Below are positions 5,622-59,163 of a stretch of DNA of 64,000 bases, piece by piece. This DNA comes from Acidobacteriota bacterium (GTDB lineage: Bacteria; Acidobacteriota; UBA4820; DSQY01). The stretch covers positions 78,532-142,531 of the forward strand of contig JBFMHB010000001.1 of assembly GCA_040752915.1 (NCBI GenBank). Direction: 5' to 3'. Position numbers and translations under genes: made by a program. Under the pieces are notes generated by a model. That model did not search any database. It was not told the DNA's origin and saw only the letters and a list, made by a program, of their open reading frames with translations. Every line of letters starts with the position of its first letter. The stretch's first letter is position 1.

Positions 5622-5700
5622 CTGAACGCGCGGACATGGCACGGTCCGGAGACTCCTTCTCCGGCCCAAGGGGCGGTAGGACCGCCGGACGGGGCTGTCG

Positions 5701-8988: not shown

Positions 8989-11891
8989 GGGGGCGTCATT
9001 CGCGTGTCCTCCAATCCCCATCCGTTCACGGGGATGCGGAGCAGGCTGCCGGAGCGGTCGCGGACGAGGACGTACCCATCCTGAAGGCCCTTCAGGAAGA
9101 GGCGCCCCGTCAGCGCGACGTCCTGTCTGCAATAGGCTTCGATGAGGTCGAAGCGGCCCTCCCTGAACCAGGCCACCGACTGCACGCCGTCGGCGCTCTT
9201 GCCCTCGCCGAAGTTGGCCTCTCCAAGGGAGGCGAGGGAAACCCGGAAGCCCATCTTCTTCCTCAGAGCCTTCAACAGGTCCAGGGTCTTGACCTTGTGA
9301 AGATCTTGTTCCGTGTAGGGCTGGAGGACCGCCAGGTCGAATCCGTCCACATTGAAGCCCACCACCAGCGGCGCCGCGAGCAGGTCTTCCACGAGCGCGT
9401 CGGCCTCTTCCTCGAAATAGGTCCGCCAACGGTCTCGGTCCAGGTCCCAGGTTACCGCCAGGGCCAGGCGCATGGCCGCTATGTGCCCCCACCCGCCCAC
9501 TTCGGCGGCGAGGCGCTGGGTTTCGAGATCGAAGACCAGTCGCCCGGGAGCTGGGCCAGGGGGGCTCCCCTGCCTTGTCGCGCCGGCCGAGGTGGGGGGC
9601 GTGGTGGGGTGTCCCTCCCCAGGATCCAGGTCCTCCTTCCCCAGGAGGATGGAGCAGACGAGACGCGCCCCTTCCTTGTCGAGCGGCTTGTTGCCGGACC
9701 CGCACTTGGGCGATTGGATGCACCCAGGGCACCCGGTTTCGCAAGGACAATCCCGAAGGAGGTCGGCGGTCGTCTGAAGGAGTTCCTCGAAGACGCCGAA
9801 CCCCTTTCTGCACAGGCCCACCCCGCCCGGATACCCGTCGTAGACAAATACGGCGGGTCCGCCCGTCTGGGGGTGAAGAGGGTAGGATATGCCTCCGAGG
9901 TCCCACCGGTCCGAAAGGGCCCTTAGGGGGAAGATGCCGATGAGGGCATGCTCGAAGGCGTGGATGCCTCCCATGAAATGGAGACCTCTCCCCGCCGCGG
10001 CGGGCTCCGACCCGGGGGGAAGGACCACCCAGAATCCCTCGGTCTCGAAGACGATGGGGGGGGCTTGGAGGGGATGTTCCGACAGGGTCTCCCCTCCACT
10101 CAGGCTCTTCTTCACGTACGAAGTGATGTGCTCCGTGACCTTGAGGCGCCCCAGGAACAGCTCCGCCGGCCCCGTCGTCCGGCGATCCCGGACCTCCAGG
10201 ATTTCGGTTTCCTTGTCTCCCCGAGCCTCGGTGTAGTAGTCCGCATCGGAGATTTTGGCCACCGCCTTCAAGTCCTTGTGCGAGAGGGCCACGATTTCGT
10301 AGCTCTGGCCCTGGTGGAGGTACACCGCTCCGACGTGGCACTCCCGGTGGACTCGAACTCCGTCCACCGTTCCGATGGCCTTTCCCGAGGGATCGACGAT
10401 CCGGTAACTCTCTCCGATTCCCCTGAGGCTCAAGTCGCGGTGGGGCGAGCGATGGAGCGTGTGCCAGGACGTACCCTCCGCATCCAGGACGAGGTCGCCC
10501 GCTTCAGCCAGGTCCTCCAGGACGTGCCGGCGGAGTCCCCCGGCGGCGAACTCCTCCTCCCTCAGGGGTGCCTCGCGCGCCGCGCAGAGGAAGTGGGGAG
10601 GCCAGAGCAAGGGGTTCTCGGGATCGAGAACGGCCTCCTCCAGGGGCCGGTTCAGCAGGCGGTCCGGGTGCGTCACGAAGTACTGGTCCAAGGCGTCGGG
10701 CATGGCGATGAGGAAGACCGCCGCCTCTTCCCCCCCGCGTCCCGCCCGGCCCATGCGCTGAAAAAGGGAGACGAGGGACCCTGGGTACCCCACGAGGACG
10801 CACGCATCGAGCCCGCCCACGTCAATGCCCACCTCCATGGCGGAGGTGCTCACAACCCCTCGGAGGGAGCCGTCGAAAAAGGCGGCCTCGATGCGCCTCC
10901 TTTCGGAGGGGAGGAATCCGGCGCGGTAGGAGGAGACCGTCTTCCGGTAGGACCGGTCTCTCTGGCAGAGCCACGAATACAGAAGTTCGGTGACTCGTCG
11001 GGCCTTGGTGAAGGTGAGTGTCCTCCTCCCCTCCCGTAAAAGACGGTCCATGACCTCCACGGCCAGGGTGTAGGGGCTCCCTTCAGTGGCGAGCAGGTGA
11101 AGACGGCGGGGGGGACGCGGGGCCCCGCTCTCTTCCAGGACGAGGGCCTCCCGCCCGGTGAGGGTTCGAAAAAAGCCGGCGGAATCGGACAGCGTGGCGG
11201 AGGTGGCCACCCACCGTGCGTCGGCGCCCGCACGGTCCAGGACGCGGCCCAACCTCCACAGAAGGTGGTGGACGTTGGCCCCGAAGATGCCACGGTACAC
11301 GTGCGCCTCGTCGAGAACCACCAGAGCCAGGCGCCGGAACCATCCCTCCCAATTCTCCCGGAAGGCCAGGAACGCCAGGTGGAGCATGTCAGGATTCGTG
11401 ATGAGGACGGGCGGCGGGTCCTTTTGGAGGACCTTCCGTTGCGCGCTTCCCGTGTCCCCGTCGTAGACCGCGGCCCGAAACCCGGTCATGCCGAGCGTCT
11501 CCGCAAAGTCGTTGATCTTGGCGCACTGGTCCTGGGCGAGGGCTTTGTACGGGTATAGGAAGAGAAAGCGTCGCGCGGGATTCTCGAGCCAGGCGTGGAG
11601 GGCGTAGAGCTGATATACGAGGCTCTTTCCGCTGGCGGTGGGCGTGCTGACCATGAGATCCCGGCCGGCGAAGAGACCCTGAAGCCCCCGGACCTGGTGG
11701 GAGAAGAGGCTCTTCATCCCCGCACGGGCCAGACCGGCCCGCAGTTCCCCGCGCAAGGCGGCCGGAGGCTCCTCCATGCCCCCCGGTGAGGCGGGGAGGT
11801 CGAAGGTGGCCCTCACGTTCTCTCGAAACCGGGGATCCGAGGCGGGCTCCCAGAGGAAGGAGCGGCAACCGGCGCGGGGCTGGTCGGGCAT
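8985..11891 (-). CDS. Fusion protein: DEAH-box helicase (MrfA/YprA-like) + DUF1998-type Cys4 zinc finger + C-terminal DEDD-family 3'-5' exonuclease domain
   Basis: Helicase motifs I TPTASGKS, II DEAH, III SAT, VI QRMGRAGRGG. DUF1998 metal cluster CPCETGCPGCIQSPKCGSGNKP. The C-terminal ~185 aa carry DnaQ/RNase D-like Exo I (FDLET), Exo II (GFNVDGFDLAVL) and Exo III Y-x3-D (YCRQD) motifs. Convergent 4-nt overlap with the kinase gene. Confidence 0.9.
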   Translation of the reverse strand: MPDQPRAGCRSFLWEPASDPRFRENVRATFDLPASPGGMEEPPAALRGELRAGLARAGMKSLFSHQVRGLQGLFAGRDLMVSTPTASGKSLVYQLYALHAWLENPARRFLFLYPYKALAQDQCAKINDFAETLGMTGFRAAVYDGDTGSAQRKVLQKDPPPVLITNPDMLHLAFLAFRENWEGWFRRLALVVLDEAHVYRGIFGANVHHLLWRLGRVLDRAGADARWVATSATLSDSAGFFRTLTGREALVLEESGAPRPPRRLHLLATEGSPYTLAVEVMDRLLREGRRTLTFTKARRVTELLYSWLCQRDRSYRKTVSSYRAGFLPSERRRIEAAFFDGSLRGVVSTSAMEVGIDVGGLDACVLVGYPGSLVSLFQRMGRAGRGGEEAAVFLIAMPDALDQYFVTHPDRLLNRPLEEAVLDPENPLLWPPHFLCAAREAPLREEEFAAGGLRRHVLEDLAEAGDLVLDAEGTSWHTLHRSPHRDLSLRGIGESYRIVDPSGKAIGTVDGVRVHRECHVGAVYLHQGQSYEIVALSHKDLKAVAKISDADYYTEARGDKETEILEVRDRRTTGPAELFLGRLKVTEHITSYVKKSLSGGETLSEHPLQAPPIVFETEGFWVVLPPGSEPAAAGRGLHFMGGIHAFEHALIGIFPLRALSDRWDLGGISYPLHPQTGGPAVFVYDGYPGGVGLCRKGFGVFEELLQTTADLLRDCPCETGCPGCIQSPKCGSGNKPLDKEGARLVCSILLGKEDLDPGEGHPTTPPTSAGATRQGSPPGPAPGRLVFDLETQRLAAEVGGWGHIAAMRLALAVTWDLDRDRWRTYFEEEADALVEDLLAAPLVVGFNVDGFDLAVLQPYTEQDLHKVKTLDLLKALRKKMGFRVSLASLGEANFGEGKSADGVQSVAWFREGRFDLIEAYCRQDVALTGRLFLKGLQDGYVLVRDRSGSLLRIPVNGWGLEDTRMTPP

Positions 11892-11912
11892 CGGGTTTCC
11901 CGGCCCGAGGGC

Positions 11913-27755: not shown

Positions 27756-27831
27756 GCGGGCGTAGCTCAGTCGGTAGAGCGCGAGCTTCCCAAGCTTGAG
27801 GTCGCGGGTTCGAGACCCGTCGCCCGCTCCA
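27756..27831 (+). tRNA. tRNA-Gly (anticodon CCC)
   Basis: Manually folded cloverleaf: acceptor GCGGGCG/CGCCCGC, D-arm GCTC-AGTCGGT-AGAGC, anticodon stem CGAGC/GCTTG with loop TTCCCAA (U33-CCC-A37), T-arm GCGGG-TTCGAGA-CCCGT, discriminator U73, encoded CCA. Confidence 0.85.
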
Positions 27832-28124: not shown

Positions 28125-28353
28125 TGGCTCTCCTGAAGAATCTGTGCAGACCCCCGAGGGGAACCGCCGTCCGCAGCAGGCGAATGGCGACCTTCCGGCG
28201 CATTGAGGAAAAGTCGATCCGCAAGGCCCCGCCTCCATTGCGCCCTCCGCCCCGATGGCATACCCTTGCTCCTTGCCATCCTGGAGGGAGGGCGGGGGGC
28301 CGCGGAAATCAAGAACTCGGCGCCCGCGGGACTCCGAACCCGCCGGAGGAGAC

Positions 28354-31077
28354 ATGGAAGGTCTGGTCATCTTGCTCCTGGCGGCCGTTCTCCTGGGAGG
28401 CCCCGTGGTGGCCCTCACCCTTGCGATTGTGGCTCTGGTCCGAGGCAACCGGCTCCGACGCAACCTTCTCGATGCCCTGGATGACCAGCGCCGGGAATTG
28501 CAACACCTTCGAGCCCAGCTTGCGAAACTCCACTCCGATCTCGCGAGGAGCGATGGTCCCCCAGTTGAAAGGAGCCCCGGTCCCGCCTTGCCCCTTGAGG
28601 CTCCAACGGAACTCCCCCCGTTGGCGCCGGAGCCCCTGACCCAGACCGCTTCAGATTCGATTCAGGCTCCGACGCAACCGATTCCTGACCGGACCGCCCC
28701 ACCTGCTCCACCCGTCGAGCCGCCCACGGCCTCCAGCGCACCGCCTGGGGCCGGACCGCCTCCCCAACCACCCGTCCGACCCGCCATGGGCCTGGAGGAG
28801 AAACTGGGGGCCAGGCTTTTCGTGTGGGTGGGAGCCGTCGCTCTGGCCCTGGCCGGAACCCTGTTCGTGAAGTATTCCATCGACCAGGGCTGGATCAGCC
28901 CGCCCGTGCGCATCGCATTGGGGGTCCTCTTCGGCGCGGCCCTCCTGGTGACGGGGGAGCTTCTCCGAAAGGGCTACCGACTCCTCGCCCAGGCGTGCTC
29001 GGCGGCCGGCATCGCCGACCTCTTCGCGTGCTTCCTTGCGGCGAGCAACCTGTACCACCTCATTCCGAACCTGGTGGCCTTCGCCCTCATGGGACTCACG
29101 GCCGCCGTGGGCGTGGCGCTCTCTCTTCGGCAGGGGCCACTGGTGGCCGTGGTGGGGCTCATCGGCGGCTTTTTCACGCCCTACTGGCTCAGCACGGGTT
29201 CCCACCGTCCGGGCCCGCTCTTCGGCTACCTGCTTCTGCTCCAGGTAGGCCTCCTGGCCGTCACGCGCCTGCGCAGGTGGTGGCCCCTGGCGGGTCTCAC
29301 CCTCCTTGCGGGAATGGGCTGGGCGGCCCTCTGGCTCGCGTTCCCGTTCCGGCCCGAGGACGGCCTCTGGGTGGGACTTTTCCTCCTCGCAAGCGTGGGG
29401 GCTTTCCTGGCCAGCGGTTTCGCCGGTCGGGCCGCGGCGGCCTGGGGAGACGCGCGGATCCCCCTGGGCCTCGGGTGGGCCGCCCTGGGCTCCGGCCTCG
29501 GGCTCCTCGCCGCACTGGCGGGCCGTGGCGGATTCGGCACCACGGAGTGGGTCTTCCTGGGCATCCTCGGCGCCGCCTGCCTGGCCATGGGGCGCCTGGA
29601 CGAGGCCTTCGAGGGGACGGCCTGGCTCGCGGTGATCCTCACGACGATCTTGCTCGGTCTTTGGGGGGCCGGCCTGGCTCCCGACGCCCTGGGCCTTTAC
29701 CTCGCGACGGCGGGTTCGCTGGGCGCCCTCTTCGCCTTTGGGGCCTACGCTTGCCTGTGGGGCTCCGCGTCGCCCGGCCGATGGGCCGCCCTCTCGGCCC
29801 TCTCGGCGCTGGGCGCGTTTCTGATGGCATGGCGGACCCACCTGGGACTCGTCCATGGGGGCCATTGGGGTCCTCCGGCCCTTGTGATGGCTTTCCTTTT
29901 CCTCGCGGGCGCCGTTCCCCTGGCCTCCCGCCGGAACACCTTGAAGGGCGGCGAGGAGGCCCTGGCGGCCATGGCGGCGGCCGCGACGGCTTTCGTGAGC
30001 CTGGCCGTGCCTCTGGAACTCCATCGCGAGTGGATGGCGGTGGCCTGGGCTCTGGAGGTGGCGGCGCTGTGCTGGCTGTCCGAACGCCTTCGGGTGGGCG
30101 CCCTGGCCAAGCTGGCCTGGGCCCTCGCGGCTGGCGTCGCGGCTCGCCTCCTCCTCAACCCCTTCGTCCTCGCCTACCCCACGGGGTCCACTCCTGTGCT
30201 GAACTGGATCCTCTACGGCTACGGCTTGCCATTGCTGGCCTTCGCCGCGGGCGCCTGGTTCGTCCACCGCGACCGCAAGGCACTTTCGGAGGCCCTCCAG
30301 TGGGGGGCCCTGGCCTTCGGCGGGGCCCTTCTGGCCCTCGAAGTTCGCCACTATTTTCACCCAGGGCGCCTGGACTCACCCCGGGTGGACCTGGCCGAGT
30401 GGGGCGGTTGGGTCGTGGCATGGATGGCGCTGGGGCTTGGCCTCCTTGCGGCCTCCCGCCGCTGGCCCCTTCGGTCCCTGGACTGGGGCGGGCGCCTGCT
30501 CCTTCTCGCGGCTCTCGCCCTGGCGGCGTTGGGCCCGTGCCTCGTCGCCAATCCTGCCTGGACCCGCCACCCCGTTGGGGACACGCCGGTTTTCAACGCC
30601 CTTCTCTTCGTTTACGGGGTTCCGGCCCTGCTGGTCCTGCTCGGAGCGGCGGAACTCCGGAGCCGTGGCGAAGAGAGGATCTCGCGCGTTCTGGGGGCCG
30701 GAGGCCTCATCCTCCTCTTCTGCCTTCTGACCCTGGAAATCCGCCAGGGCTTCCGGGGCAGTCTGCTTCAGGCGGGCCGCGCCACCAACATGGAGAATTA
30801 CGCGTATTCGGCGGGATGGATCCTCTTCGGGCTGGTCCTCCTGGGGGCAGGCATCGCCCGGCGATCGGCGGCCTTCCGGTACGCATCCCTCGCCGTGATG
30901 ATTCTCACCATCGGAAAGATCTTCCTCTACGACCTCGCCCACCTGAAGGACACCCTGCTTCGCGCCCTCTCGTTCCTGGGGCTGGGGACGAGCCTGCTGC
31001 TGATCGCCTACCTTTACATGCGTTTCGTTTTCCGCCGGAGGGACGAATGCGAATCCGCCGCTTCGCGGGAGTCCTGA
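28354..31077 (+). CDS. DUF2339-family polytopic membrane protein (N-terminal TM + coiled coil + Pro-rich linker + >20 TM helices)
   Basis: Start taken at ATG 28354 (MEGLVILLLAAVLLGG) with a GGAGGA RBS. Coiled-coil LRRNLLDALDDQRRELQHLRAQLAKLHSDL, a Pro-rich spacer, then ~600 aa of repeated hydrophobic helices — the architecture typical of DUF2339. Confidence 0.75.
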   Translation: MEGLVILLLAAVLLGGPVVALTLAIVALVRGNRLRRNLLDALDDQRRELQHLRAQLAKLHSDLARSDGPPVERSPGPALPLEAPTELPPLAPEPLTQTASDSIQAPTQPIPDRTAPPAPPVEPPTASSAPPGAGPPPQPPVRPAMGLEEKLGARLFVWVGAVALALAGTLFVKYSIDQGWISPPVRIALGVLFGAALLVTGELLRKGYRLLAQACSAAGIADLFACFLAASNLYHLIPNLVAFALMGLTAAVGVALSLRQGPLVAVVGLIGGFFTPYWLSTGSHRPGPLFGYLLLLQVGLLAVTRLRRWWPLAGLTLLAGMGWAALWLAFPFRPEDGLWVGLFLLASVGAFLASGFAGRAAAAWGDARIPLGLGWAALGSGLGLLAALAGRGGFGTTEWVFLGILGAACLAMGRLDEAFEGTAWLAVILTTILLGLWGAGLAPDALGLYLATAGSLGALFAFGAYACLWGSASPGRWAALSALSALGAFLMAWRTHLGLVHGGHWGPPALVMAFLFLAGAVPLASRRNTLKGGEEALAAMAAAATAFVSLAVPLELHREWMAVAWALEVAALCWLSERLRVGALAKLAWALAAGVAARLLLNPFVLAYPTGSTPVLNWILYGYGLPLLAFAAGAWFVHRDRKALSEALQWGALAFGGALLALEVRHYFHPGRLDSPRVDLAEWGGWVVAWMALGLGLLAASRRWPLRSLDWGGRLLLLAALALAALGPCLVANPAWTRHPVGDTPVFNALLFVYGVPALLVLLGAAELRSRGEERISRVLGAGGLILLFCLLTLEIRQGFRGSLLQAGRATNMENYAYSAGWILFGLVLLGAGIARRSAAFRYASLAVMILTIGKIFLYDLAHLKDTLLRALSFLGLGTSLLLIAYLYMRFVFRRRDECESAASRES

Positions 31078-39041: not shown

Positions 39042-39117
39042 GGGCCATTAGCTCAACCGGTAGAGCAGGGGACTCTTAATCCCAAGGTTGTAGGTTCGAG
39101 TCCTACATGGCCCACCA
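39042..39117 (+). tRNA. tRNA-Lys (anticodon CTT)
   Basis: Manually folded: acceptor GGGCCAT/ATGGCCC, D-arm GCTC-AACCGGTA-GAGC, anticodon loop CTCTTAA (U33-CUU-A37), T-arm GTAGG-TTCGAGT-CCTAC, discriminator A73, encoded CCA. Confidence 0.85.
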
Positions 39118-41904: not shown

Positions 41905-42202
41905 AATCAACATCCAGAACCAGATCCTCAATTTCGTCCGCAAGGATCGTTCCCTCATCACGATCTTCCTCGTCAGCGGGAAGAAGTTCGTCGGTCAGGT
42001 CCTTGGCTTCGACCGCTACACGATCCACATCCGCGGGCGCGACTACGACCAGATCGTCTTCAAGCACGCCATCACCAACGTGTCGGTTCCCCGCCACGTG
42101 ATGCAGAAGATGACCGGTGGAGAGGGCGACGAGCCCATGGACGGGGCCCTTCCCTCCTCGGAGGGGGAGGACCCGATTCCCGAGGACGACGAGTCCCAAT
42201 GA
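41849..42202 (+). CDS. hfq: RNA chaperone Hfq with extended acidic C-terminal tail
   Basis: Sm1 ITIFLVSGKKFVGQVLGFD, Sm2 FKHAI. Classic miaA-hfq synteny. The start overlaps the miaA 3' end, so the exact start is uncertain. Confidence 0.8.
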   Translation: MMPSNSSRDGAKKPAPNREINIQNQILNFVRKDRSLITIFLVSGKKFVGQVLGFDRYTIHIRGRDYDQIVFKHAITNVSVPRHVMQKMTGGEGDEPMDGALPSSEGEDPIPEDDESQ

Positions 42203-42284
42203 ACCGCATGGGGAAGGGGGGCCGGGCGGCCCCCCTTCCCGCCTTGCGCGGGCCGGCCCTCGTCCCGGCCGCTTGGGGTGAGCG

Positions 42285-42950
42285 TTGGACCAGACGGAAC
42301 TGCTGAAACGGATCACCTGCTTCAGCGGGCTGGATGAAGCCCATCTGGAGGAGGTTCTCCGCTTTTCGGAACGTCGCACCTTCAGCCGCGGGGAAGTCCT
42401 GTTCGAGTTGGGCGATCCGGGCGAGGCGCTTTACATCCTCCTCTCGGGGCGGGTCAAGTGTTACATCAACGGCAAGGACGGACGTCAGGTGACGCTCGCA
42501 TTCCTGGGTCCCGGAGAACTGGTCGGCGAACTGGCCCTGTTCGATCCGGCGGAACGCCGCTCGGCATCCGTCCAGGCGGTGGAAGAGACGGACTGCGTGT
42601 GGCTTTCCCGGGAACGCTTCCTGGAGGCCCTCGCCTCCAATCCTTCCCTTGCCCTCTCCGTCATCCGGACCCTTTCCCAGAGGCTTCGGGAAACCTCCCA
42701 GCGCGTGGGCAGCCTGGTTCTGATGGACACCTTCGGCCGCCTCGCGCGCTTCATCACAGAACTGGCGGAGCGCGAAGGGCGCCAGCTGGCCGACGGCTCC
42801 ATCCTGATCACGCGGCCGACCCAGGAGGAGATCGCCCATTTCATCGGAACCAGCCGCGAGACCGTGAACCGCCTGCTGAAGGAACTGGAGACCCAGGGGT
42901 TCTTGCGCCTTCTCGGCCGGAAGATCCTCCTGTTCAAGACCCCCTCCTGA
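42285..42950 (+). CDS. Crp/Fnr family transcriptional regulator (cNMP-binding domain + HTH)
   Basis: TTG start. cNMP-binding beta-roll (GEVLFELGDPGEALYILLSGRVK...GPGELVGELAL) and C-terminal HTH TQEEIAHFIGTSRETVNRLLKEL. Confidence 0.85.
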   Translation: MDQTELLKRITCFSGLDEAHLEEVLRFSERRTFSRGEVLFELGDPGEALYILLSGRVKCYINGKDGRQVTLAFLGPGELVGELALFDPAERRSASVQAVEETDCVWLSRERFLEALASNPSLALSVIRTLSQRLRETSQRVGSLVLMDTFGRLARFITELAEREGRQLADGSILITRPTQEEIAHFIGTSRETVNRLLKELETQGFLRLLGRKILLFKTPS

Positions 42951-43000
42951 GGAGGACCCAAAGCCCCCGCGTGGTACACTCCCACCGCATGGAGGGATGC

Positions 43001-44044
43001 ATGAACGACGCGTCCTGGAAGAGGGTGCTCCTCGTTGCCTGCACCGTCACCTTCGCCGCTCTGGGCGGTGTGGACCCCGAAGCCCCCTATCGAGAAACCG
43101 TTTCCGGAGGGAGCGTGGATTGGGACGCGGGGTGGATCCGGGCCGAAGCGGAGGTCCCCCTTCCTGCCGCGGGACCTTCCACCGCCCAGGCCCGTGTGGA
43201 TGCCCGGAGAGTCGCCGTTCTCAAAGCCCAGGCCGCGGCGCTTCGAATCGCCATGCGCCTTCCTGTCGACTCCGAGCGTCGGCTCGAATCCTTTGAGGCG
43301 CTCCGGACCCGGGTCCGGGGCATCGTCTCGGGAGGCCGGGTCGTTTCGGAGGGGGACCGGGACGGACGCTACGTTCTGACCCTCGAGGTGCCCATCAACG
43401 GCGTCCAGGGCCTCGCTTCGGAGGTGGCCCTGGTCACTCTCCCCGCGCCCCCGCCCGAACCCGCGCCCCCCCGGAGAACGCCCTCGGACCCGCCTGCTCC
43501 GCGGGCCGAGCCGACTCCCCCGCCGAGTCGCGAGCTCTCCTCCTTCGCCACGGTCACCGTGGATGCCCGGGAGGCGGGAGTGAGGCCCGCCCTGCAGCCG
43601 AGGATTCTGGATCCCGCCGGGAGGGAAGTCTACGGCATCAAGACCATCAAACCCCTGCGCGCCCGGGAAGGGATGCTCGCCCGCTACGTAACCCGGCCGG
43701 CCGCCTCCCAGGGGCGCTTCCGCCTCACGGACCCGCACCTCTCCCCCGCCCTCCCCCTCGCCCTCGCCGCCCTGCCCCGGATCGAAAGGGCGCAGCGGCC
43801 GCCCTCCACCCGTCCGCGGGGGGAGGAGGCGGCCATCGAGGTGAAGGCAATGGGAGCCTCCGGCTCCCTCGGGGCCGACATCCTCGTCACCGAGGAGGAG
43901 GCCCGCCGCCTGCGCGAGGCCGAAGCCGCAACGGGGGCCCTCTCGGAGGGGCGGGTCCGAATCGTGGTTCGTCCCGACGTGGGCGGAGTGGAGGGTCGCG
44001 GCCTCCGCCCGAAACCCTCGGACCTCTGGCTCGCCGAACGCTGA
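43001..44044 (+). CDS. Lipoprotein with N-terminal LPP20/FlgP-like domain
   Basis: Lipobox LLVAC; RBS GGAGGGA. LPP20-like block GWIRAEAEVP...AQARVDARRVAVLKAQAAALRIAM...RVRGIVSGGRVVSEGDRDGRYVLTLEV, a Pro-rich linker, then a C-terminal region of unknown fold. Confidence 0.5.
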   Translation: MNDASWKRVLLVACTVTFAALGGVDPEAPYRETVSGGSVDWDAGWIRAEAEVPLPAAGPSTAQARVDARRVAVLKAQAAALRIAMRLPVDSERRLESFEALRTRVRGIVSGGRVVSEGDRDGRYVLTLEVPINGVQGLASEVALVTLPAPPPEPAPPRRTPSDPPAPRAEPTPPPSRELSSFATVTVDAREAGVRPALQPRILDPAGREVYGIKTIKPLRAREGMLARYVTRPAASQGRFRLTDPHLSPALPLALAALPRIERAQRPPSTRPRGEEAAIEVKAMGASGSLGADILVTEEEARRLREAEAATGALSEGRVRIVVRPDVGGVEGRGLRPKPSDLWLAER

Positions 44045-44054
44045 AGGGGGTACC

Positions 44055-45917
44055 GTGGCGCTGGCCTGGCCCCGCTTTCGCCGGGGCGGACTCATTCTCG
44101 GCGGGATTCTGACCGTCCTCGGGGCGCTCCCCCTCGCTCTGGGGATCGCCTCGCCCGGCGAGGGAAGGCTGTACGATCTCCTGCTCCGAACGCGGAGGCA
44201 CCCTCCCTCCGGCCGGGTGGTGCTCGTTGCGGTGGACGATGCCGCGTTTCAGGCCTTGGGGGGACGCAATCCCAGCCGCGCCGACATCGCCGCTGTCGTG
44301 GATCGCCTCTGGGCTTCGGGCGCCGCCCTGGTGGCGCTGGATTTTTTGTTCCTCGAGCCAAGAACGGAAGCCGAAGACGCGCTCCTGGAAGGCGCTCTCG
44401 CGCGCGCGGATTGCCTCCTGGCCTGCAGCCCCGGCAACGGTCTCTATCCCTTGGACCGGTTTCGGCGCCAGGCCGTCGGACTCGGCTCCATCGACCTCCT
44501 CTCCGATCCGGACGGCATCTTCCGCAAAATCCCCGCTCCGTACGTGGAGGCGCAGGAGGGCCGATTCAAGATCCGGCACCCGCCTCTCGCCCTGGCAAGC
44601 GCTCTTCTTTACTGGTTTCCCGAGGGACCGCCGGAGGTGAGGCTGGAAGGGAACACCCTGCACCTGGGAGAGAGGCGGTTCGCCACCGATGGCACGGGAT
44701 GGTGGATCCCTTACCTCGGCGGTGAAGGAACCCTGCCGCGGATCCCCTTTCTGGAGGCGTTGAAGGGGTCAGGGCCCCTCCCCGCCTTGAAGGGCCGCAT
44801 CGTCCTCGTGGGTTCCGCCCGCCCCAGCCAGCACGACTTTTTCTCCGTCCCCCTCCCCAGGCTTGCGGACCCGGGACAGACCTCCCTTTCGAGCCACACC
44901 ATGGCGGGGGTCGAGGTCCATGGCCAGGCTCTGGAGGCCCTACTGGCCGGCCGGGAAATCGTACCCGTCCGCGGGCCATGGGCCTGGGCCCTTTTCGCCC
45001 TTCTGGCCGCCCTGGGCACGGTGCTCACATCCCTTGCCCTCCGGCCCGGCCCGGCCCTGGCCGTCTGGTTCCTGGTTTTCGCCTCCCTGGCGTGGGGCGC
45101 CATCGCCGCCGTGCGGGCGGGAAGGCCCCTTCCGATCTTGGGCCTGGCGCTTTGCGCGCTTCTCTTCGCGGGGGGGTCCTTCGCCTACCACCGGGCCCGC
45201 GACTACAGCGAGCGCCGGGCGGTGGAAGGCCTTTTCAGCCGGTACGTCTCGCCGAACATCGCCAGGACGCTCCTTCGGAACCCGGGTGTCGTCCAGCTCG
45301 GAGGCCGAAGGAAGGACCTGACCATTCTCTTTTCCGACATCCGCGGGTTCACGCGCCTCTCCGAAGACCTTCCGCCGGAGCGCGTCTGCCTCCTGCTCAG
45401 CGAGTACTTCAACGAGATGACGGAGGTTCTTTTCGCCTTCGACGGCACCCTGGACAAGTTCATCGGAGACGCAATCCTGGCCTTCTTCGGCGATCCCCTG
45501 ACGCAACCCGACCACCCCGCCCGCGCTCTGGCCTGCGCCGTCGCCATGCAGGAACGCGCCAGGGCCCTCCGGGAGCGGTTCTCCAGGGAGGGGAAACCGC
45601 CGCTGCACATCGGAATCGCCGTTACGTCGGGGCCCGTGGTGGTGGGGAACAACGGCTCCAGGAACAACTTCGCCTACACGGTGATCGGGGACACGGTGAA
45701 CCTGGCCTCCCGGCTCCAGGGCCTCGCCGTTTCCGACGACGTGATCGTGCCGGCCGGCTTGGCGGCCCGCATCCCCGAGTTGTACGAGACTTACGAGGTC
45801 GAACCCCTCGATCCGGTCCGGGTCAAGGGCAAGAGCGAAGAGATCCCCATCCTGCGCGTTCGGGGGAGGCGGTCCTCCGGCTCCGACCCGGCGCAGACGC
45901 ACGGAGGTGTTCCATGA
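44055..45917 (+). CDS. CHASE2-sensor adenylate/guanylate cyclase (class III nucleotidyl cyclase)
   Basis: N-terminal TM, a periplasmic CHASE2-like domain (VVLVAVDDAAF...ALDFLFLEP), three TM helices, then cyclase motifs LTILFSDIRGFTRLSE, KFIGDAILAFFGDP, VVVGNNGSRNNFAYTVIGDTVNLASRLQG. Confidence 0.85.
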   Translation: MALAWPRFRRGGLILGGILTVLGALPLALGIASPGEGRLYDLLLRTRRHPPSGRVVLVAVDDAAFQALGGRNPSRADIAAVVDRLWASGAALVALDFLFLEPRTEAEDALLEGALARADCLLACSPGNGLYPLDRFRRQAVGLGSIDLLSDPDGIFRKIPAPYVEAQEGRFKIRHPPLALASALLYWFPEGPPEVRLEGNTLHLGERRFATDGTGWWIPYLGGEGTLPRIPFLEALKGSGPLPALKGRIVLVGSARPSQHDFFSVPLPRLADPGQTSLSSHTMAGVEVHGQALEALLAGREIVPVRGPWAWALFALLAALGTVLTSLALRPGPALAVWFLVFASLAWGAIAAVRAGRPLPILGLALCALLFAGGSFAYHRARDYSERRAVEGLFSRYVSPNIARTLLRNPGVVQLGGRRKDLTILFSDIRGFTRLSEDLPPERVCLLLSEYFNEMTEVLFAFDGTLDKFIGDAILAFFGDPLTQPDHPARALACAVAMQERARALRERFSREGKPPLHIGIAVTSGPVVVGNNGSRNNFAYTVIGDTVNLASRLQGLAVSDDVIVPAGLAARIPELYETYEVEPLDPVRVKGKSEEIPILRVRGRRSSGSDPAQTHGGVP

Positions 45918-46993
45918 AGCGATCGGCTGGACTCTTGGCGTTCCTTCTCTTGCTTTTGGGAGGCGGCGCCGCCTCCGCCCAGTCCCGGGTGACGGCCACG
46001 GGAACGGCCGCCATCCTGTCCGGAGACGCCGCGCGGGCGCGCGACCGCGCGGTGGAGGCCGCTCTCCGCACGGCCGTCGAGCAGGTCATCGGGACGCTCG
46101 TGGACTCGGAGACCCTGGTTCAGAACAACCAGCTCCTGGCGGACCGCATCTACACGCAAACCAGGGGCTACGTCTCCAACTACTCGATTCTCTCCGAGAA
46201 CGCCGACCGGGACTCCAATATCTACACGGTTCAGGTGGAGGCGGAGGTGCGGGAGGGCAGCCTGGCGGACGACCTCGGTGGTCTCGGGCTCCTTCTGAGG
46301 CGGATGAAGATGCCCCGCGTCGCGGTGGTGCTCAAGAACGACGACGGGACCGTCGCGGCCTTCGTTCAGAAGGTGCTGAGGGAAAAGGGCTTCCTCCTTG
46401 TGGAGACTCCGGACGAGGCGGGAGGCGCAGGGTTCTGGTCCATGGATCAGGGCGCCCAGTCCGACCTCCTTCGACGCTACGGAGCGGAGGTGGCCATCCT
46501 CGGTGCCGCTTCCGGTGGGGCCGGCGGAAGCGTGAGGGGCTCCAACTTGACCTCCTACCAGGCGTCGGTCAACCTGAAGGCGGTAAAGGCCGATACCCGG
46601 GAGATTCTGGCCACCGCCTCGGGACATGGCACCTCCGTCCACGTGGGCGAGGCCGGATACCAGGAGGCGGCCCGCCAGGCGGCCACCGTGGCGGGAGGCG
46701 ACCTGGTCCGCCAGATCACGTCCCAGTGGGCCCGCGAATCCTCCTCGTCCCGGGCCCTTCTGCTTGATATCGATGGCGTGACGCCCGAGCGGGCCGCGGA
46801 GGTGGCGGCCCGGCTGGAGCGGGAAGCCCGCGGCGTTCAGGAGGCGATCCTTCGAAGCTCGGAAGGGGCCCGCGCCACGCTCCACGTGTCCATGCAAGGA
46901 GACGCCTCCGATCTGGCGCAGGAGATTCGAAAGCTCTGGCCCAGGGCCAAGGTCACTTCCCAGAGCGCCAACCGTTTGACAGTGGCTTTCTAG
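45914..46993 (+). CDS. Periplasmic protein with LPP20-like repeats
   Basis: ATGA overlap with the cyclase stop. Signal peptide MKRSAGLLAFLLLLLGGGAASAQS. Two blocks resembling the LPP20/FlgP fold (ATGTAAILSGDAARARDRAVEAALRTAVEQVIGTLV...; GYQEAARQAATVAGGDLVRQIT) flanking a central domain. Confidence 0.5.
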   Translation: MKRSAGLLAFLLLLLGGGAASAQSRVTATGTAAILSGDAARARDRAVEAALRTAVEQVIGTLVDSETLVQNNQLLADRIYTQTRGYVSNYSILSENADRDSNIYTVQVEAEVREGSLADDLGGLGLLLRRMKMPRVAVVLKNDDGTVAAFVQKVLREKGFLLVETPDEAGGAGFWSMDQGAQSDLLRRYGAEVAILGAASGGAGGSVRGSNLTSYQASVNLKAVKADTREILATASGHGTSVHVGEAGYQEAARQAATVAGGDLVRQITSQWARESSSSRALLLDIDGVTPERAAEVAARLEREARGVQEAILRSSEGARATLHVSMQGDASDLAQEIRKLWPRAKVTSQSANRLTVAF

Positions 46994-47026
46994 GACCGCT
47001 ATCCTGGGCCCTTAGGAGGAATCCCG

Positions 47027-47911
47027 ATGAAACGCCTCGTAGCCCTGTCGCTCGTCCTCGCCTTCTCGGCCGCATCCCTGGCGACCTTCGCCCAGAAGCC
47101 CCGCATCGCCGTGCTGAAGATCAGGAACGAGTCCCAATACGGCCACGGGCGTCTGGGGCCCGCCATCGAGGACTGGCTGGTGGAGAAGCTCGTCCAGTCC
47201 GGCCAGTTCCGAGTCATCGAGCGAAAAGAGCTGGAATCGGTCCTCGCCGAGCAGGAGCTCTCCTTGAGCGGAGCCATCGACGACAAGACCGCCGTCAAGG
47301 TGGGCAAACTCCTGGGCTGCCAGCTCGTGGTGATGGGCGCCGTCACCGATTTTTCCATCCGCAAGGCCGGAGGGGAAGCCTTCTTCAGGCTCGGCGTCGA
47401 CGCCAGCAAGACGACCGCCGAAGGCACCCTCAGCCTCCGCCTGGTCAACACGACCACGGCCGAGATCCTCTTTACGGGCAGCGAATCGGGCAAGGACTCC
47501 TTCGGGAAACTCCGGATCGCCGGTATCGGCGGCGGCACGGACTGGGACGAGTCCCAGGCGCGTAAGATCTTCCAGCCGGCGGTGGACCGCCTGGCCCAGC
47601 AGATCGTCAACAGCGCGTCGAGCCTCAAAGAGGGGCTCGGCGCCGCGGCCCTGGTCTCCGGAAAAGTGGCCAAGGTGAGCGACGGCAAGGCCTACGTCAA
47701 TCTGGGCAGTACGGACGGAATCCGCGAAGGACAGCAGTTCGGCCTCTTCCGGGTGGGGGAGACCATCACCGATCCCGACACGGGAAAGGTCCTCGGCCAG
47801 GAGAAGTCTCGAATCGGAACGCTGACCATCACCAAGATCGTGGGCGAGCACCTGTCCATCGGGGTGGTGGACGGAGGCGGCCAGGCCCAGGTCGGAGACG
47901 TCCTGGAATAG
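47027..47911 (+). CDS. CsgG-like (curli production assembly/transport component family) periplasmic protein
   Basis: Signal peptide. Family-like blocks PRIAVLKIRNESQYGHG, LVQSGQFRVIERKELESVLAEQELSLSGAIDDKTAVKVGKLLGCQLVVMGAVTDF. Confidence 0.6.
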   Translation: MKRLVALSLVLAFSAASLATFAQKPRIAVLKIRNESQYGHGRLGPAIEDWLVEKLVQSGQFRVIERKELESVLAEQELSLSGAIDDKTAVKVGKLLGCQLVVMGAVTDFSIRKAGGEAFFRLGVDASKTTAEGTLSLRLVNTTTAEILFTGSESGKDSFGKLRIAGIGGGTDWDESQARKIFQPAVDRLAQQIVNSASSLKEGLGAAALVSGKVAKVSDGKAYVNLGSTDGIREGQQFGLFRVGETITDPDTGKVLGQEKSRIGTLTITKIVGEHLSIGVVDGGGQAQVGDVLE

Positions 47912-47947: not shown

Positions 47948-48496
47948 ATGACCGTTCCCAACATGCTCTCCATCCTGCGCATCGCGCTCATCCCCGTGTT
48001 CATCCTCGCGGTGGCCTACGGGCATCCGCGCCTCGCCCTCTGGGTCTTTCTTGGATCGGGAATCACGGACTCCCTGGACGGGTTTATCGCGCGCTTCTTC
48101 AACCAGCGGTCGGAGCTCGGGGCCTTCCTGGACCCCATGGCCGACAAACTCATGCTCACGGCCACCTACGTCGCCCTCGCCCTTCCGGAGACGGGCATCA
48201 GCCATCCCATTCCCGCCTGGGTCCCCATCCTCACCATCGCCAGGGACGTGGTGATCGTCACCCTGGCCCTGATCTTGAACCTGACCCACGGGATCAAGAG
48301 TTTTCCGCCCTCGCTCCCGGGAAAGTGCACCACCGTCGTCCAGATCTCCTACGCCGTGGCGGTTCTGATCCAGAACGCCTTCTGGTTCGACCCTCGTTTT
48401 GTGGCCGCGCTCAAGTGGGGTGTCGCCTGTTTCACGGTGTACTCGGGCGTTCACTACTTCTGGAGAATGCGCTCGTGGACACGCACCCAGCCTTGA
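47948..48496 (+). CDS. pgsA: CDP-diacylglycerol--glycerol-3-phosphate 3-phosphatidyltransferase (CDP-alcohol phosphatidyltransferase family)
   Basis: Signature DSLDGFIARFFNQRSELGAFLDPMADK (D-G-x2-A-R...G-x3-D-x3-D) and 4-5 TM helices. Confidence 0.85.
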   Translation: MTVPNMLSILRIALIPVFILAVAYGHPRLALWVFLGSGITDSLDGFIARFFNQRSELGAFLDPMADKLMLTATYVALALPETGISHPIPAWVPILTIARDVVIVTLALILNLTHGIKSFPPSLPGKCTTVVQISYAVAVLIQNAFWFDPRFVAALKWGVACFTVYSGVHYFWRMRSWTRTQP

Positions 48497-56689: not shown

Positions 56690-57370
56690 CTAAAGGCCGC
56701 CCCTCAATCCCGCGTCCACGAAAGCCTGGATACGGCGCCGGTCTTCGGGGCCGAGGTCCTCGAACTGGACCCCGTAGGCGTTGAGGCGCGAATCCACCTC
56801 CCGAGCCTCCCTCACCACCTTGCCCGAGACCCTCACCTTGTCCTTTTCGAGGGGGAGGGTGATTTGGAGTTGAATGGAGTCGCCCAGCTTCAATCGCCGG
56901 GCGGTCAAAATCAGGATGCCCGAGGCACTCAGGTTGAGGGAATTGCACAGGAACAGACTCGATTGCACGTACCCCTGCACCTGAACGTAGACCAGAAGGC
57001 GGGCGTCCTTGCGCACGGCGATCGAGAGGAGGCGGCGGCAGGCCTCGTTGAAATCGCCCCCCACGACGGGTTTTCGCAGGACGGTGTTGACCCCCTCCGG
57101 CTTCTCCGCCGACGGGCTCCCGCTCAGAAGGATCAGGGCGGCGTGGCGGCCCGCCGGGTTGAGCCGAACTTGCTTTACGAAATCCCGGACCTCCATGTCG
57201 GCCAGTCGGTCGTCCGTGATGATGAGGCTCGGGCTCACCTCCGAGATTTTTCGGAGGGCCTCCTCGCCCGTCGCGGCGCGTAGGACCTCGTGCTCCTTCC
57301 TCAGGAGGAGGCTCTGGTCAAACGGCACCACCGGAATTCCGCTCTCCAAGATCAGAATGCGATGTCCCAT
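56690..57370 (-). CDS. Response-regulator receiver domain fused to a PilZ (c-di-GMP-binding) domain
   Basis: Receiver fold with phospho-Asp candidate in LIITDD and conserved K (LRKP), but the N-terminal acidic pair is degenerate (ILILESG instead of DD). PilZ motifs RKDAR (RxxxR) and NLSASG (D/NxSxxG). Confidence 0.7.
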   Translation of the reverse strand: MGHRILILESGIPVVPFDQSLLLRKEHEVLRAATGEEALRKISEVSPSLIITDDRLADMEVRDFVKQVRLNPAGRHAALILLSGSPSAEKPEGVNTVLRKPVVGGDFNEACRRLLSIAVRKDARLLVYVQVQGYVQSSLFLCNSLNLSASGILILTARRLKLGDSIQLQITLPLEKDKVRVSGKVVREAREVDSRLNAYGVQFEDLGPEDRRRIQAFVDAGLRGGL

Positions 57371-57487
57371 GGGCCCCTCCGGGTCCGCACCCCCCTCGGC
57401 GGGGACGCGGGCCCATGATGACTCGATTGCGCCTAGCCCCGTAGCAAGTGTAGGCCCAGGCGGGAGCCCGATTCAAGAGCCCACGGG

Positions 57488-58441
57488 TCAGGGGGCGGCG
57501 GATTCCGGCTCCTCGTAGGGATAAAGCGGGGTGGAGAGATACCGTTCGCCGCTATCGCACACGACGCTCACGACGCGCTTCCCGGGCCCGAGCTCCCGGG
57601 CCACCCCGAGGGCGGCGTGAAGGATCGCCCCCGAGGAGATGCCCGCCAGGATGCCCTCTTCGAGTCCGAGGCGGCGGGCCGCCTCGAGGGCCTCGTCGAA
57701 CCCGACGCGCACGACCCGGTCCACCACCGAGGGGTCGTAGTTGTCCGGAACGAATCCGGCTCCGATTCCCTGGATCCGGTGCTTTCCTGGCTCTCCACCC
57801 GAGAGCACGGGCGAATCCGACGGTTCCACCGCCAGGACCATGACCGATGGCCCCAGGCTGGCCTTGAGCATTCTCCCGACGCCCGCCACCGTTCCACCCG
57901 TCCCGACCCCCGCCACGAAGGCGTCCAGTTTTCCCCCCGTGTCCCTCAGTACTTCCAGGGCCGTCGAGTTCCTGTGGATCCAGGGATTCGCCGGATTGTC
58001 GAACTGTGAGGGCACGAAGCACCCCGGCGTTTCGGAGGCGATGCGGAGGGCCACGGCGATGGCCCCCTTCATCCCCTTCTCTCCCGGAGTCAGAATCAGC
58101 CGGGCGCCGAAGGCCTGGAGCAGCCGCCTCCGTTCCAGACTCATGGTGTCCGGCATCACAAGGGTCAGCCGGTATCCCTTCTGCGCGGCCACCATGGCGA
58201 GACCGATCCCCGTGTTCCCGGAGGTCGGCTCGACGATGGACATCCCAGGCAGGAGGGTTCCCGCTTCCTCGGCGGCGGATATCATCGCGTGCGCGATGCG
58301 GTCCTTTACGCTGGCGCCGGGATTGAGGGATTCGAGTTTGACGCACACTTCGGCCATGTCCGCCGATGGAATCCGGTTCAGGCGCACGAGGGGCGTATCC
58401 CCTATGACCTGCGAGATGTTGTCGTAGATTCGTCCTCTCAT
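57488..58441 (-). CDS. cysK: Cysteine synthase A (O-acetylserine sulfhydrylase), paralog 2
   Basis: Start at MRGRIYDNISQVIGDTPLVRL (reverse ATG 58441..58439), with an ATGA overlap onto the nth stop. SVKDRIA PLP-lysine, PTSGNTGIGLA, GVGTGGT, and SSGA blocks. Confidence 0.9.
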   Translation of the reverse strand: MRGRIYDNISQVIGDTPLVRLNRIPSADMAEVCVKLESLNPGASVKDRIAHAMISAAEEAGTLLPGMSIVEPTSGNTGIGLAMVAAQKGYRLTLVMPDTMSLERRRLLQAFGARLILTPGEKGMKGAIAVALRIASETPGCFVPSQFDNPANPWIHRNSTALEVLRDTGGKLDAFVAGVGTGGTVAGVGRMLKASLGPSVMVLAVEPSDSPVLSGGEPGKHRIQGIGAGFVPDNYDPSVVDRVVRVGFDEALEAARRLGLEEGILAGISSGAILHAALGVARELGPGKRVVSVVCDSGERYLSTPLYPYEEPESAAP

Positions 58442-59163
58442 CTCTCTCGCTCCTGAGCCTCGGGACGGACCGCGCCCTCCCTGGCCCGCTCTCTCCCGAA
58501 GACAGGCCCGGCGGCAGGACGTTCCTGGCCGAGGCCGATTCGGGGACAATCGCTCATCAACAGGCATCCGCCGCACCTGGGCACCCGGGCCGTACAGATG
58601 GCCCGACCGTGCCGGATCAGCCGGTGGCCGAGGGCCGTCCATTCCCGCCTGGGAAACCGGGCCATGAGATCCGCCTCGATGGCTTCGGACCTTCGATGCG
58701 CCGTCAACCCGAGCCGCCTCGAAAGCCGCGCCACGTGCGTATCCACCACGAACCCCTCTTGGATTCCAAATCCCGTTCCCAGAACCACGTTGGCCGTCTT
58801 CCTGGCCACTCCGGGGAGCCGAAGCAGTTCTTCCATGGTCCCTGGCACCGCTCCTCCGTGCCTTTCGGCGATGAGGCGGCTGACCTGCCTCAGGAAACGG
58901 GCCTTGTTCCGGAAAAACCCCGTGGGACGAACGATCTCTTCCAGTTCCTGGGGCTCGGCCTCCGCCAGCTCCCCGGGTCCAGGCCATCTCCCGAACAGGG
59001 CCGGCGTGACCTGGTTCACACGCTCATCGCGGCATCGGGCCGACAGGATCGTCGCCACGAGGAGCTCAAAGGGCGTCCGGAAGGACAGGGTGCAGGATGC
59101 GTCCGGATAGAGAGCCCTCAAGCCTTCCGCGACGCGTTTGGCCCGTCCAGACTCCTCCCGCAT
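58438..59163 (-). CDS. nth: Endonuclease III (DNA glycosylase/AP lyase)
   Basis: HhH-GPD with LPGVARKTANVVL, catalytic K/D, and the C-terminal 4Fe-4S cluster loop CTARVPRCGGCLLMSDC. Confidence 0.9.
   Translation of the reverse strand: MREESGRAKRVAEGLRALYPDASCTLSFRTPFELLVATILSARCRDERVNQVTPALFGRWPGPGELAEAEPQELEEIVRPTGFFRNKARFLRQVSRLIAERHGGAVPGTMEELLRLPGVARKTANVVLGTGFGIQEGFVVDTHVARLSRRLGLTAHRRSEAIEADLMARFPRREWTALGHRLIRHGRAICTARVPRCGGCLLMSDCPRIGLGQERPAAGPVFGRERAREGAVRPEAQERER

Follow-up and report, generated by a model that had tools for sequence, protein, structure and literature searches.

A CHASE2 adenylate cyclase encoded among secreted FlgT-, Lpp20-, and CsgG-type proteins: a candidate envelope-to-cAMP operon of Thermoanaerobaculia-like Acidobacteriota

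Results

Organization of the Locus

We analyzed a 64-kb stretch of DNA, hereafter the window, from an uncultured acidobacterium (assembly GCA_040752915.1, contig JBFMHB010000001.1, positions 78,532–142,531). Reading frames, hidden Markov model (HMM) scans, and promoter and terminator scans were run on the window sequence, whose G+C content is about 67%. The subject of this study is a cassette of five genes, here called g1 to g5, which encode a regulator of the CRP family, a receptor adenylate cyclase with a periplasmic CHASE2 domain, and three secreted proteins (table 1). A first-pass annotation, made from the sequence alone, had described five co-directional genes with short spacers or 4-nucleotide (nt) overlaps. 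All five open reading frames (ORFs) are indeed present on the + strand within the interval it gave, and the g1–g2, g2–g3, g3–g4, and g4–g5 spacers measure 50, 10, −4 (an ATGA overlap), and 33 nt, respectively. A GGAGGG ribosome-binding site precedes g2.

On its 5' side, the cassette is preceded by tsaD, a tRNA gene, lepB, a DUF4388/PatA_N gene, miaA, and hfq. On its 3' side, pgsA starts 36 nt after g5 and is followed by DUF192, cobO, rpsA, and hu genes. Co-directionality alone says little, because the + strand carries everything from tsaD (37960) to about 52900 and pgsA follows g5 so closely. The cassette is likely parted from hfq by a terminator or attenuator, the GC-rich hairpin that directly follows the hfq stop codon; GC-rich palindromes of differing sequence occupy the same position after hfq in the ortholog loci. 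Over the whole window, the terminator scan returned sites no more numerous than expected by chance, and the Rfam scan found two tRNAs and no other RNA element.

Table 1. Coordinates of the cassette genes, of nearby signals, and of the tRNA genes in the window
Feature	Position	Strand	Description
g1	42285–42950	+	CRP-family cAMP receptor/transcription factor, 221 aa, TTG start; cNMP_binding + HTH_Crp_2 + Crp
g2	43001–44044	+	Secreted periplasmic protein, 347 aa; Pro-rich linker between an N-terminal SHS2/LPP20-like domain and a second beta-rich domain
g3	44055–45917	+	Receptor adenylate cyclase, 620 aa; transmembrane helix, periplasmic CHASE2, three transmembrane helices, cytoplasmic class IIIb catalytic domain (predicted)
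g4	45914–46993	+	Secreted FlgT-like protein, 359 aa; FlgT_N (SHS2) + CsgG/LptE-like + alpha/beta C-terminal domain
g5	47027–47911	+	Secreted non-lipidated protein, 294 aa; CsgG-family domain + C-terminal FlgT_C/TsaP-like beta domain
pgsA	47948–48496	+	CDP-alcohol phosphatidyltransferase; PF01066 called in ortholog loci
GC-rich hairpin	42205–42248	+	Directly 3' of hfq stop; 13-bp inner stem, minimum free energy −40.9 kcal/mol, z −1.77, without U-tract
Possible −10 element	42975–42980	+	TGgTACACT in the 50-nt g1–g2 spacer, read from the sequence; weak candidate
Internal promoter, sigma-70 type	46976–47005	+	TTGACA-18-TATCCT, in the last g4 codons and the g4–g5 spacer
tRNA gene	39042–39114		Between tsaD and lepB; Rfam
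tRNA gene	27756–27828		Rfam

A CHASE2 Adenylate Cyclase and a cAMP-Receptor-Type Regulator

The product of g3 matches CHASE2 (PF05226, E 4.8e-39, residues 26–319) and Guanylate_cyc (PF00211, E 4.6e-20), and is thus a class III cyclase with a CHASE2 sensor as first annotated. Its hydrophobic segments, read from the sequence at about residues 11–33, 309–329, 334–353, and 359–378, place CHASE2 between an N-terminal transmembrane helix and a transmembrane bundle. The nearest solved relative of the catalytic domain is Pseudomonas aeruginosa CyaB (3r5g), with which the metal-binding residues D428 (FSD428I) and D472 (IGD472A) and the transition-state residues N549 and R553 align. In class III cyclases, substrate choice follows a pair of residues: Lys with Asp or Thr for ATP, and Glu with Cys or Gly for GTP. 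The first-pass annotation had left the choice between adenylate and guanylate. Inspection of this pair revealed K468 (DKFIGD) and T542 (YTVIGD), identical to those of CyaB, and the guanylate cyclase Cya2 (2w01) has Glu where g3 has Lys. Because the catalytic Asp and Asn/Arg residues and the Lys468/Thr542 pair all match CyaB, we predict that g3 encodes a class IIIb adenylate cyclase, which should produce cyclic AMP (cAMP). Some homologs of this cyclase (P0159 and P0221) bear an N-terminal PilZ domain.

The identification of the g1 product as a cyclic-nucleotide-binding transcription factor is also upheld, by matches to PF00027 cNMP_binding (E 1.4e-25), PF13545 HTH_Crp_2 (E 6.2e-15), and PF00325 Crp (E 1.8e-8). 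Its nearest solved structures are all cAMP receptors: GlxR (4byy, E 6.5e-41), Mycobacterium tuberculosis CRP, Escherichia coli CAP, and Vfr. E. coli CRP contacts cAMP through E72, R82, S83, T127, and S128, and the TGTGA half-site of its DNA target through R180, E181, and R185. The motifs GE...RRSAS, ..ETSQRVG.., and TSRETVNR, read from the g1 sequence, align with 'PRTSSA' and 'SRETVNK' of GlxR, and g1 thus appears to retain the Arg-Ser, Thr-Ser, and Arg-Glu...Arg motifs at the cAMP and DNA contact positions. Against the NCBIfam CRP equivalog model NF008732, g1 scores 139 bits for a cut-off of 266, which marks it as a family member and not as an ortholog-grade match. By these motifs and matches, g1 is a CRP of the cAMP-receptor type and a predicted binder of cAMP.

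Three Secreted Proteins Built from Scaffold-Type Domains

The first-pass annotation saw in g2 a lipoprotein with an LPP20/FlgP-like domain, a description that has to be revised. No match to PF02169 (LPP20) was obtained even at E<=10, and the sole Pfam match is FlgT_N, below cut-off (E 0.014–0.09, 13.7–16.3 bits). The likeness to LPP20 lies at the fold level: the N-terminal domain of the g2 structural model (mean predicted confidence, pLDDT, of 68) matches Lpp20 (5ok8) with an E of 0.014 and a template-modeling (TM) score of 0.57. The best fold match of the model is the D1–D2 tandem of Tp0624 from Treponema (5jir), with an E of 6.6e-11 over about 300 columns. A lipobox-like LVAC is found only in the window g2 and its close relatives, most orthologs having no Cys in the signal peptide. 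As the hydrophobic stretch continues through this Cys, a signal peptide of the signal-peptidase-I type is more likely. The g2 family is large: at E<=1e-3 it comprises 1,885 clusters at 50% identity, and it has no Pfam model. In longer members, FlgT_N, LPP20, or FlgO-like domains are added, and one distant member (P0252) matches LPP20 at 33.7 bits. The family (window g2 and P0226–P0372) displays a W..G near the N-terminus, IDARG...PAL.P, a basic KKKRRR, and a C-terminal VVVV....GG[IV]EG. We considered the C-terminal DVGGVE of g2 as a cyclase-specific contact motif and rejected this idea, as distant family members share it.

For g4, in which two LPP20-like segments had been reported, we find one FlgT_N domain, a middle domain resembling CsgG, LptE, and GNA1162, and an alpha/beta C-terminal domain. 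The N-terminal fragment (residues 21–135) matches FlgT_N (PF16548) at 35.2 bits for a cut-off of 28.8. A whole-protein hmmscan of g4, or of the 99%-identical P0001, misses this domain, for which we suspect a filter effect. In a Foldseek search, the AlphaFold model of g4 (pLDDT 75) gave Vibrio FlgT (3w1e) as its best whole-chain fold match, with an E of 9e-11 over 381 columns and a TM score of only 0.25, the domain orientations being different. The model also matches the LPHT-ring structure 8z5n along the whole chain, and the N-terminus of LipL46 matches g4 at an E of 2.5e-10. The middle domain gave fold matches to CsgG, LptE, and GNA1162. The C-terminal domain has no FlgT_C match; the FlgT_C-like domain sits in g5.

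The CsgG-family assignment of g5 proved sound (PF03783, E 4.5e-27, 95 bits, model positions 5–195 of 210). Further matches include LpoB, TolB_N, and, below threshold, FlgT_C (24.4 bits), and the C-terminal beta domain matches TsaP (6ve2), a secretin-associated protein of type IV pili, at an E of 8.2e-6. A signal peptide without Cys is present. A conserved lipobox is found in none of g2, g4, and g5. All three are predicted to be secreted and are built, judging from these matches, from domain types that elsewhere form periplasmic or outer-membrane-associated scaffolds (SHS2/LPP20/FlgT_N, CsgG/LptE-like, and FlgT_C/TsaP-like).

Conservation and Modularity of the Cassette

To follow the cassette in related genomes, we searched 80 fetched loci with the window proteins by phmmer; the relatives are metagenome-assembled genomes (MAGs) of Thermoanaerobaculia-like Acidobacteriota. 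In all of the about 38 ortholog loci that show this side of g3, g2 lies directly upstream of it, g2-g3-g4-g5 are kept together in about 35, and g3 and g4 are adjacent in all but one (L059). The g2–g3 spacers range from −19 to +20 nt, with two outliers, 126 nt in L021 and 584 nt in L001, the latter a locus with frameshifted gene calls. The g3–g4 spacers range from −11 to +37 nt, and those between g4 and g5 from 32 to 40 nt, with 27 nt in L060. Between hfq and g2, crp (the g1 ortholog) is found in about 25 of the 32 observable loci. Two loci are informative on the cohesion of the block. In L013, a divergent gene for glutamate dehydrogenase (gdh) stands in place of the upstream flank and the block begins at g2. 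In L060, the cyclase is only 41% identical and hfq-crp-g2-g3-g4-g5 is kept. Downstream, every Thermoanaerobaculia-like locus has pgsA next to g5, as does the distant locus L025, whose gene order is g4-g5-pgsA; g5 and pgsA probably share one transcript.

In two Syntrophales loci (L026 and L032), a g2-like gene belongs to one cluster with g4- and g5-like genes and without a cyclase gene. These clusters therefore tie g2 to g4 and g5 independently of the cyclase. We rejected as g2-like the 338-aa protein encoded upstream of the g5/g4 pair of Selenomonadaceae (hhalign probability 0.2%). The Syntrophales cluster itself (L026 9902–19453, also in L032) opens with a FlgT_N protein, continues with three secreted proteins of very large size, and is closed by the g2-like protein. 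The large proteins combine TPR with a CsgG-like domain (670 aa), a CsgG-like domain with three fn3 and an Ig domain (764 aa), and a GNA1162-like domain with a beta-helix (925 aa), and the whole resembles an as yet uncharacterised cluster for envelope or surface assembly.

Paralogous CHASE2 cyclases of Thermoanaerobaculia, 33–35% identical, occupy a second conserved context (L061 3546–11194 and L062 3423–11058). It comprises three GT4 glycosyltransferase genes, the cyclase gene, an overlapping gene for an unknown 250-aa protein, and genes for an M48 peptidase and a DUF4097 toast-rack protein. A general linkage of CHASE2 cyclases to LPP20/FlgT/CsgG genes was thus rejected, since the paralogs adjoin GT4, M48, and DUF4097 genes. 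Because these paralogs have other secreted or membrane neighbors, CHASE2 sensors seem to carry their own operon partners. From the distribution of the genes, we conclude that g4-g5(-pgsA) represents an old envelope pair and that g2 would be of the same functional neighborhood. We likewise conclude that g2-g3 is probably a clade-specific addition and that crp appears to be a frequent but dispensable neighbor.

Regulatory Signals

The crp–g2 spacers of the orthologs are otherwise divergent and carry a CGTGA-N6-TCACA or TGTGC-N6-TCACA palindrome, a candidate CRP box; CGTGACGCCCGTCACA is a candidate target DNA of g1. Among 33 distinct g2 upstream regions, 18 match TGTGA-N6-TCACA at 9 or more of the 10 positions (0.065 in shuffles), and 23 at 8 or more (1.2 in shuffles). 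The boxes lie 39 nt or 19–21 nt upstream of a −10-like hexamer, spacings that by count resemble class I and class II sites, and are also found in loci without an adjacent crp (L003, L013, L018, and L037). These occurrences give good reason to place the g2-g3-g4 unit in a predicted CRP regulon in the family. In a subclade of four loci (L002, L012, L015, and L063), the crp–g2 spacer lacks CGTGA-N6-TCACA, and the motifs GATCGCTCGATCACC and GCTGAACC(C/A)CTTCA stand at the same place; they may represent a changed operator.

Scanning the window with TGTGA-N6-TCACA and up to 2 mismatches gave 4 matches for 8.7 expected. A position weight matrix built from the ortholog boxes, which themselves score 17–22 bits, found nothing above 11.3 bits over the 64 kb and at most 3.8 bits over 42100–43100. 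The best CRP-like site, CGTGACCTGGTTCACA at 59005–59020 (1 mismatch, 11.3 bits), scores too low for a call and is located at the upstream end of a stop-to-stop ORF on the − strand (57488–59023) that holds a gene for a PALP-family enzyme. The −10-like hexamers of the orthologs are comparable to the element in the g1–g2 spacer of the window.

A second signal lies between g4 and g5. The −35 of the internal promoter is encoded by CGT-TTG-ACA, codons that are rare in the window (6.3%, 6.6%, and 1.9% usage). It nevertheless persists in 24 of the 25 distinct g4–g5 junctions of orthologs, and the full −35/−10 pair in 23. The retention of a −35 made of rare codons suggests constraint at the DNA level and thus indicates an internal promoter that would drive g5-pgsA.

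Other Genes in the Window

Elsewhere in the window, we noted a gene for a large histidine kinase, cytoplasmic and bearing five or six PAS domains (5680–8988), and, on the − strand (8985–11912), one for a helicase combining DEAD/Helicase_C, MZB (MrfA-type Zn-binding), and HRQ1 winged-helix domains. A DUF2339 membrane protein of 956 aa (28207–31077) is encoded in a segment of unusually negative AT skew (28–34 kb). A PilZ-domain protein encoded on the − strand (56690–57472) suggests that cyclic di-GMP signaling is also represented in the region.

Discussion

An Envelope-to-cAMP Operon and Its Alternatives

We propose that the cassette is a Thermoanaerobaculia-type envelope-to-cAMP operon, in which the CHASE2 cyclase works with operon-encoded periplasmic proteins in a loop with cAMP and CRP; we would give this proposal an even chance of being right. 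The periplasmic proteins, g2 foremost, would be partners or co-sensors of CHASE2, and their assembly, ligand, or envelope condition would set the activity of the cyclase. The cAMP made by g3 would activate the CRP-family regulator, which in most lineages would bind the CGTGA-N6-TCACA box before g2 and control g2-g3-g4, resulting in an autoregulatory loop. Additionally, g5-pgsA would be expressed from its own constitutive promoter. In evolutionary terms, a g2-g3 sensor pair would have been placed before the older g4-g5(-pgsA) envelope pair. Information may flow from the envelope to the cyclase, from the cyclase to the envelope, or both ways. The proposal is supported by the persistence of the block in L013, where its flank is replaced, and in L060, where the cyclase has diverged to 41% identity.

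Several observations weigh against this proposal. Neither the window nor its two nearest relatives (L004 and L005) have a CRP box upstream of g2. The regulator gene is missing in about 7 of the 32 observable loci (L013, L021, L059, L068, L069, L074, and L080). The pair g4-g5 occurs without cyclase or crp genes in Syntrophales, Selenomonadaceae, and another acidobacterium (27–31% identity). Conversely, L059, whose cyclase is 38% identical, has hfq-g2-g3 followed by a gene on the opposite strand, that is, g2-g3 without g4-g5. The gene g5 has its own conserved promoter. Adjacency alone is weak evidence here, because the cassette sits in a run of housekeeping genes with strong synteny. The relatives are, without exception, MAGs or metagenome contigs, and we infer the coupling of CHASE2 to g2, g4, and g5 from sequence. 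The claims of the first-pass annotation on the system as a whole must be narrowed in consequence. Co-conservation holds for g2-g3-g4-g5, tightly linked in some 35 loci, and fails for the five genes together, given the loci without crp and the g4-g5 pairs without cyclase. The suggestion that the adjacent Crp-type protein reads the cyclase output is favored by the adenylate-type residues of g3, by the cAMP-receptor type of g1, and by the CRP box in 18 of 33 ortholog loci; the window itself has no such box. An indivisible unit of five genes is contradicted by the loci without crp, by the cyclase-free g4-g5 pairs, by L059, and by the separate promoter of g5.

Alternatively, two unrelated modules may stand side by side. 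One would be a (crp)-g2-g3 sensor pair, with g2 as the sole partner of CHASE2, and the other a constitutive envelope/lipid housekeeping unit, g4-g5-pgsA, with no tie to cAMP. The cyclase-free g4-g5 pairs, the order g4-g5-pgsA in L025, the gene order of L059, and the conserved promoter before g5 all speak for such a division. However, in all ortholog loci but one, g3 and g4 either overlap or almost abut, leaving no promoter-sized gap, and g4 is therefore transcribed with the cyclase gene; the clustering of a g2-like gene with g4- and g5-like genes in Syntrophales also argues against the separation. We regard the two-module explanation as possible, on the unlikely side. It is considerably less probable, and in our judgment improbable, that the order merely reflects inherited synteny in a narrow clade, the cyclase, the Crp, and the secreted proteins being functionally unrelated. 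Synteny is certainly strong, with tsaD-lepB-DUF4388-miaA-hfq...pgsA-DUF192-cobO-rpsA-hu collinear on one strand in most loci. Nevertheless, the block survives a change of either flank (L013 and L003), its spacers are minimal or negative, and the CRP box is conserved within an otherwise divergent spacer.

The fold and HMM likeness to FlgT, to SHS2 domains of the Lpp20/FlgP type, and to CsgG raises the question of whether g2, g4, and g5 are parts of a flagellar H-ring or basal disk (FlgT/FlgP/FlgO-like), or of a curli-type CsgG channel, with a cyclase regulating motility or curli. No flagellar or curli genes were detected by the Pfam scan of the 20 largest remaining ORFs in the window or among the Pfam-annotated neighbors in related loci, and a conserved lipobox is missing from all three proteins. 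Moreover, the three domains of FlgT are here split over two proteins, and g4 adds a C-terminal domain foreign to FlgT. We rejected both the flagellar and the curli readings, which we find hardly credible without gene context or lipid anchors. Returning to the envelope-to-cAMP operon, a bolder version of it, doubtful in our own estimate, can be formulated. CHASE2 would read, instead of a small molecule, the state of assembly of a periplasmic scaffold made of g2, g4, and g5, H-ring-like and non-flagellar, the whole forming a cAMP-based envelope-surveillance circuit. The g4-g5 pair and the 1,885-cluster g2 family would then stand for a periplasmic structure of diderm bacteria that has yet to be described.

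Comparison with Known Systems

The signals of CHASE2 domains are largely unknown, the only case traced being that of a plant protein relayed by NsrA to Sinorhizobium cyclases (PMC13001267). A conserved operon with a CHASE2 cyclase gene among those of three secreted proteins offers clonable candidate protein partners, with cAMP as the read-out. In addition, domains of the FlgT, Lpp20, and CsgG types, mainly known from flagellar rings and curli, are found here in a conserved non-flagellar gene pair present in at least three phyla, and the analysis exposes the g2-like proteins as a large family lacking a Pfam model. Our literature search found no paper combining CHASE2, adenylate cyclase, and CsgG. 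The first-pass annotation had recognized no described system in the arrangement, which goes too far in view of CHASE2 precedents in Sinorhizobium (PMC13001267) and Burkholderia (PMC5192318).

In S. meliloti, the CHASE2 adenylate cyclases CyaD1, CyaD2, and CyaK act via the Crp-like regulator Clr and need NsrA (an outer-membrane beta-barrel), the signal being a plant protein (PMC13001267). Both systems involve a CHASE2 cyclase, cAMP, and a CRP-family regulator, and an envelope protein that is needed there (PMC13001267) and predicted here. Of the elements of such a pathway, the cyclase and the regulator are encoded in the window, and the CRP box before g2 is found in 18 of 33 ortholog loci and not in the window. 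In S. meliloti, a cyclase gene presumably also lies near the regulator gene. Unlike in S. meliloti, the candidate partners here are three soluble secreted proteins of the SHS2, FlgT, and CsgG types encoded in the same operon, and the host is an uncultured acidobacterium. A similar gene arrangement is provided by the 'BiofilmReg' operon of Burkholderia, which encodes a response regulator, a secreted LysM-FecR periplasmic protein, and a CHASE2 histidine kinase (PMC5192318). In both cases, the gene for the CHASE2 sensor directly follows that for a secreted protein and lies beside a transcription factor gene (PMC5192318). The output differs, a histidine kinase with its response regulator in Burkholderia and cAMP with CRP here, as does the partner, LysM-FecR in the former and Tp0624/LPP20-like in the latter.

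The secreted proteins have relatives of their own. FlgP, Lpp20, and FlgT_N share an SHS2-like fold that is used in building periplasmic rings (PMC12222027). Like the H-ring protein FlgT of Vibrio (with FlgP and FlgO) and the basal-disk protein FlgP of Campylobacter, the products of the cassette display FlgT_N and a whole-chain FlgT match (g4), an SHS2 fold (g2), and FlgT_M-like and FlgT_C-like domains (g5). Unlike these flagellar proteins, they were found in no flagellar context, are not lipoproteins, divide their domains differently, and are linked to a cyclase. The alignment of g2 with Tp0624 of Treponema pallidum covers D1 and D2, which its authors called previously uncharacterised (PMC5104382); Tp0624, whose function is unknown, has an additional C-terminal OmpA-like domain. 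Within the CsgG/LpoB/GNA1162 superfamily, g5 matches PF03783 and the middle domain of g4 adopts the same fold class. Unlike the CsgG curli channel, g5 has no lipid anchor and no curli genes among its annotated neighbors. The regulatory logic of the cassette is thus already known from other bacteria; the novelty lies in the partners themselves, Tp0624/Lpp20-, FlgT-, and CsgG-like proteins encoded around the cyclase.

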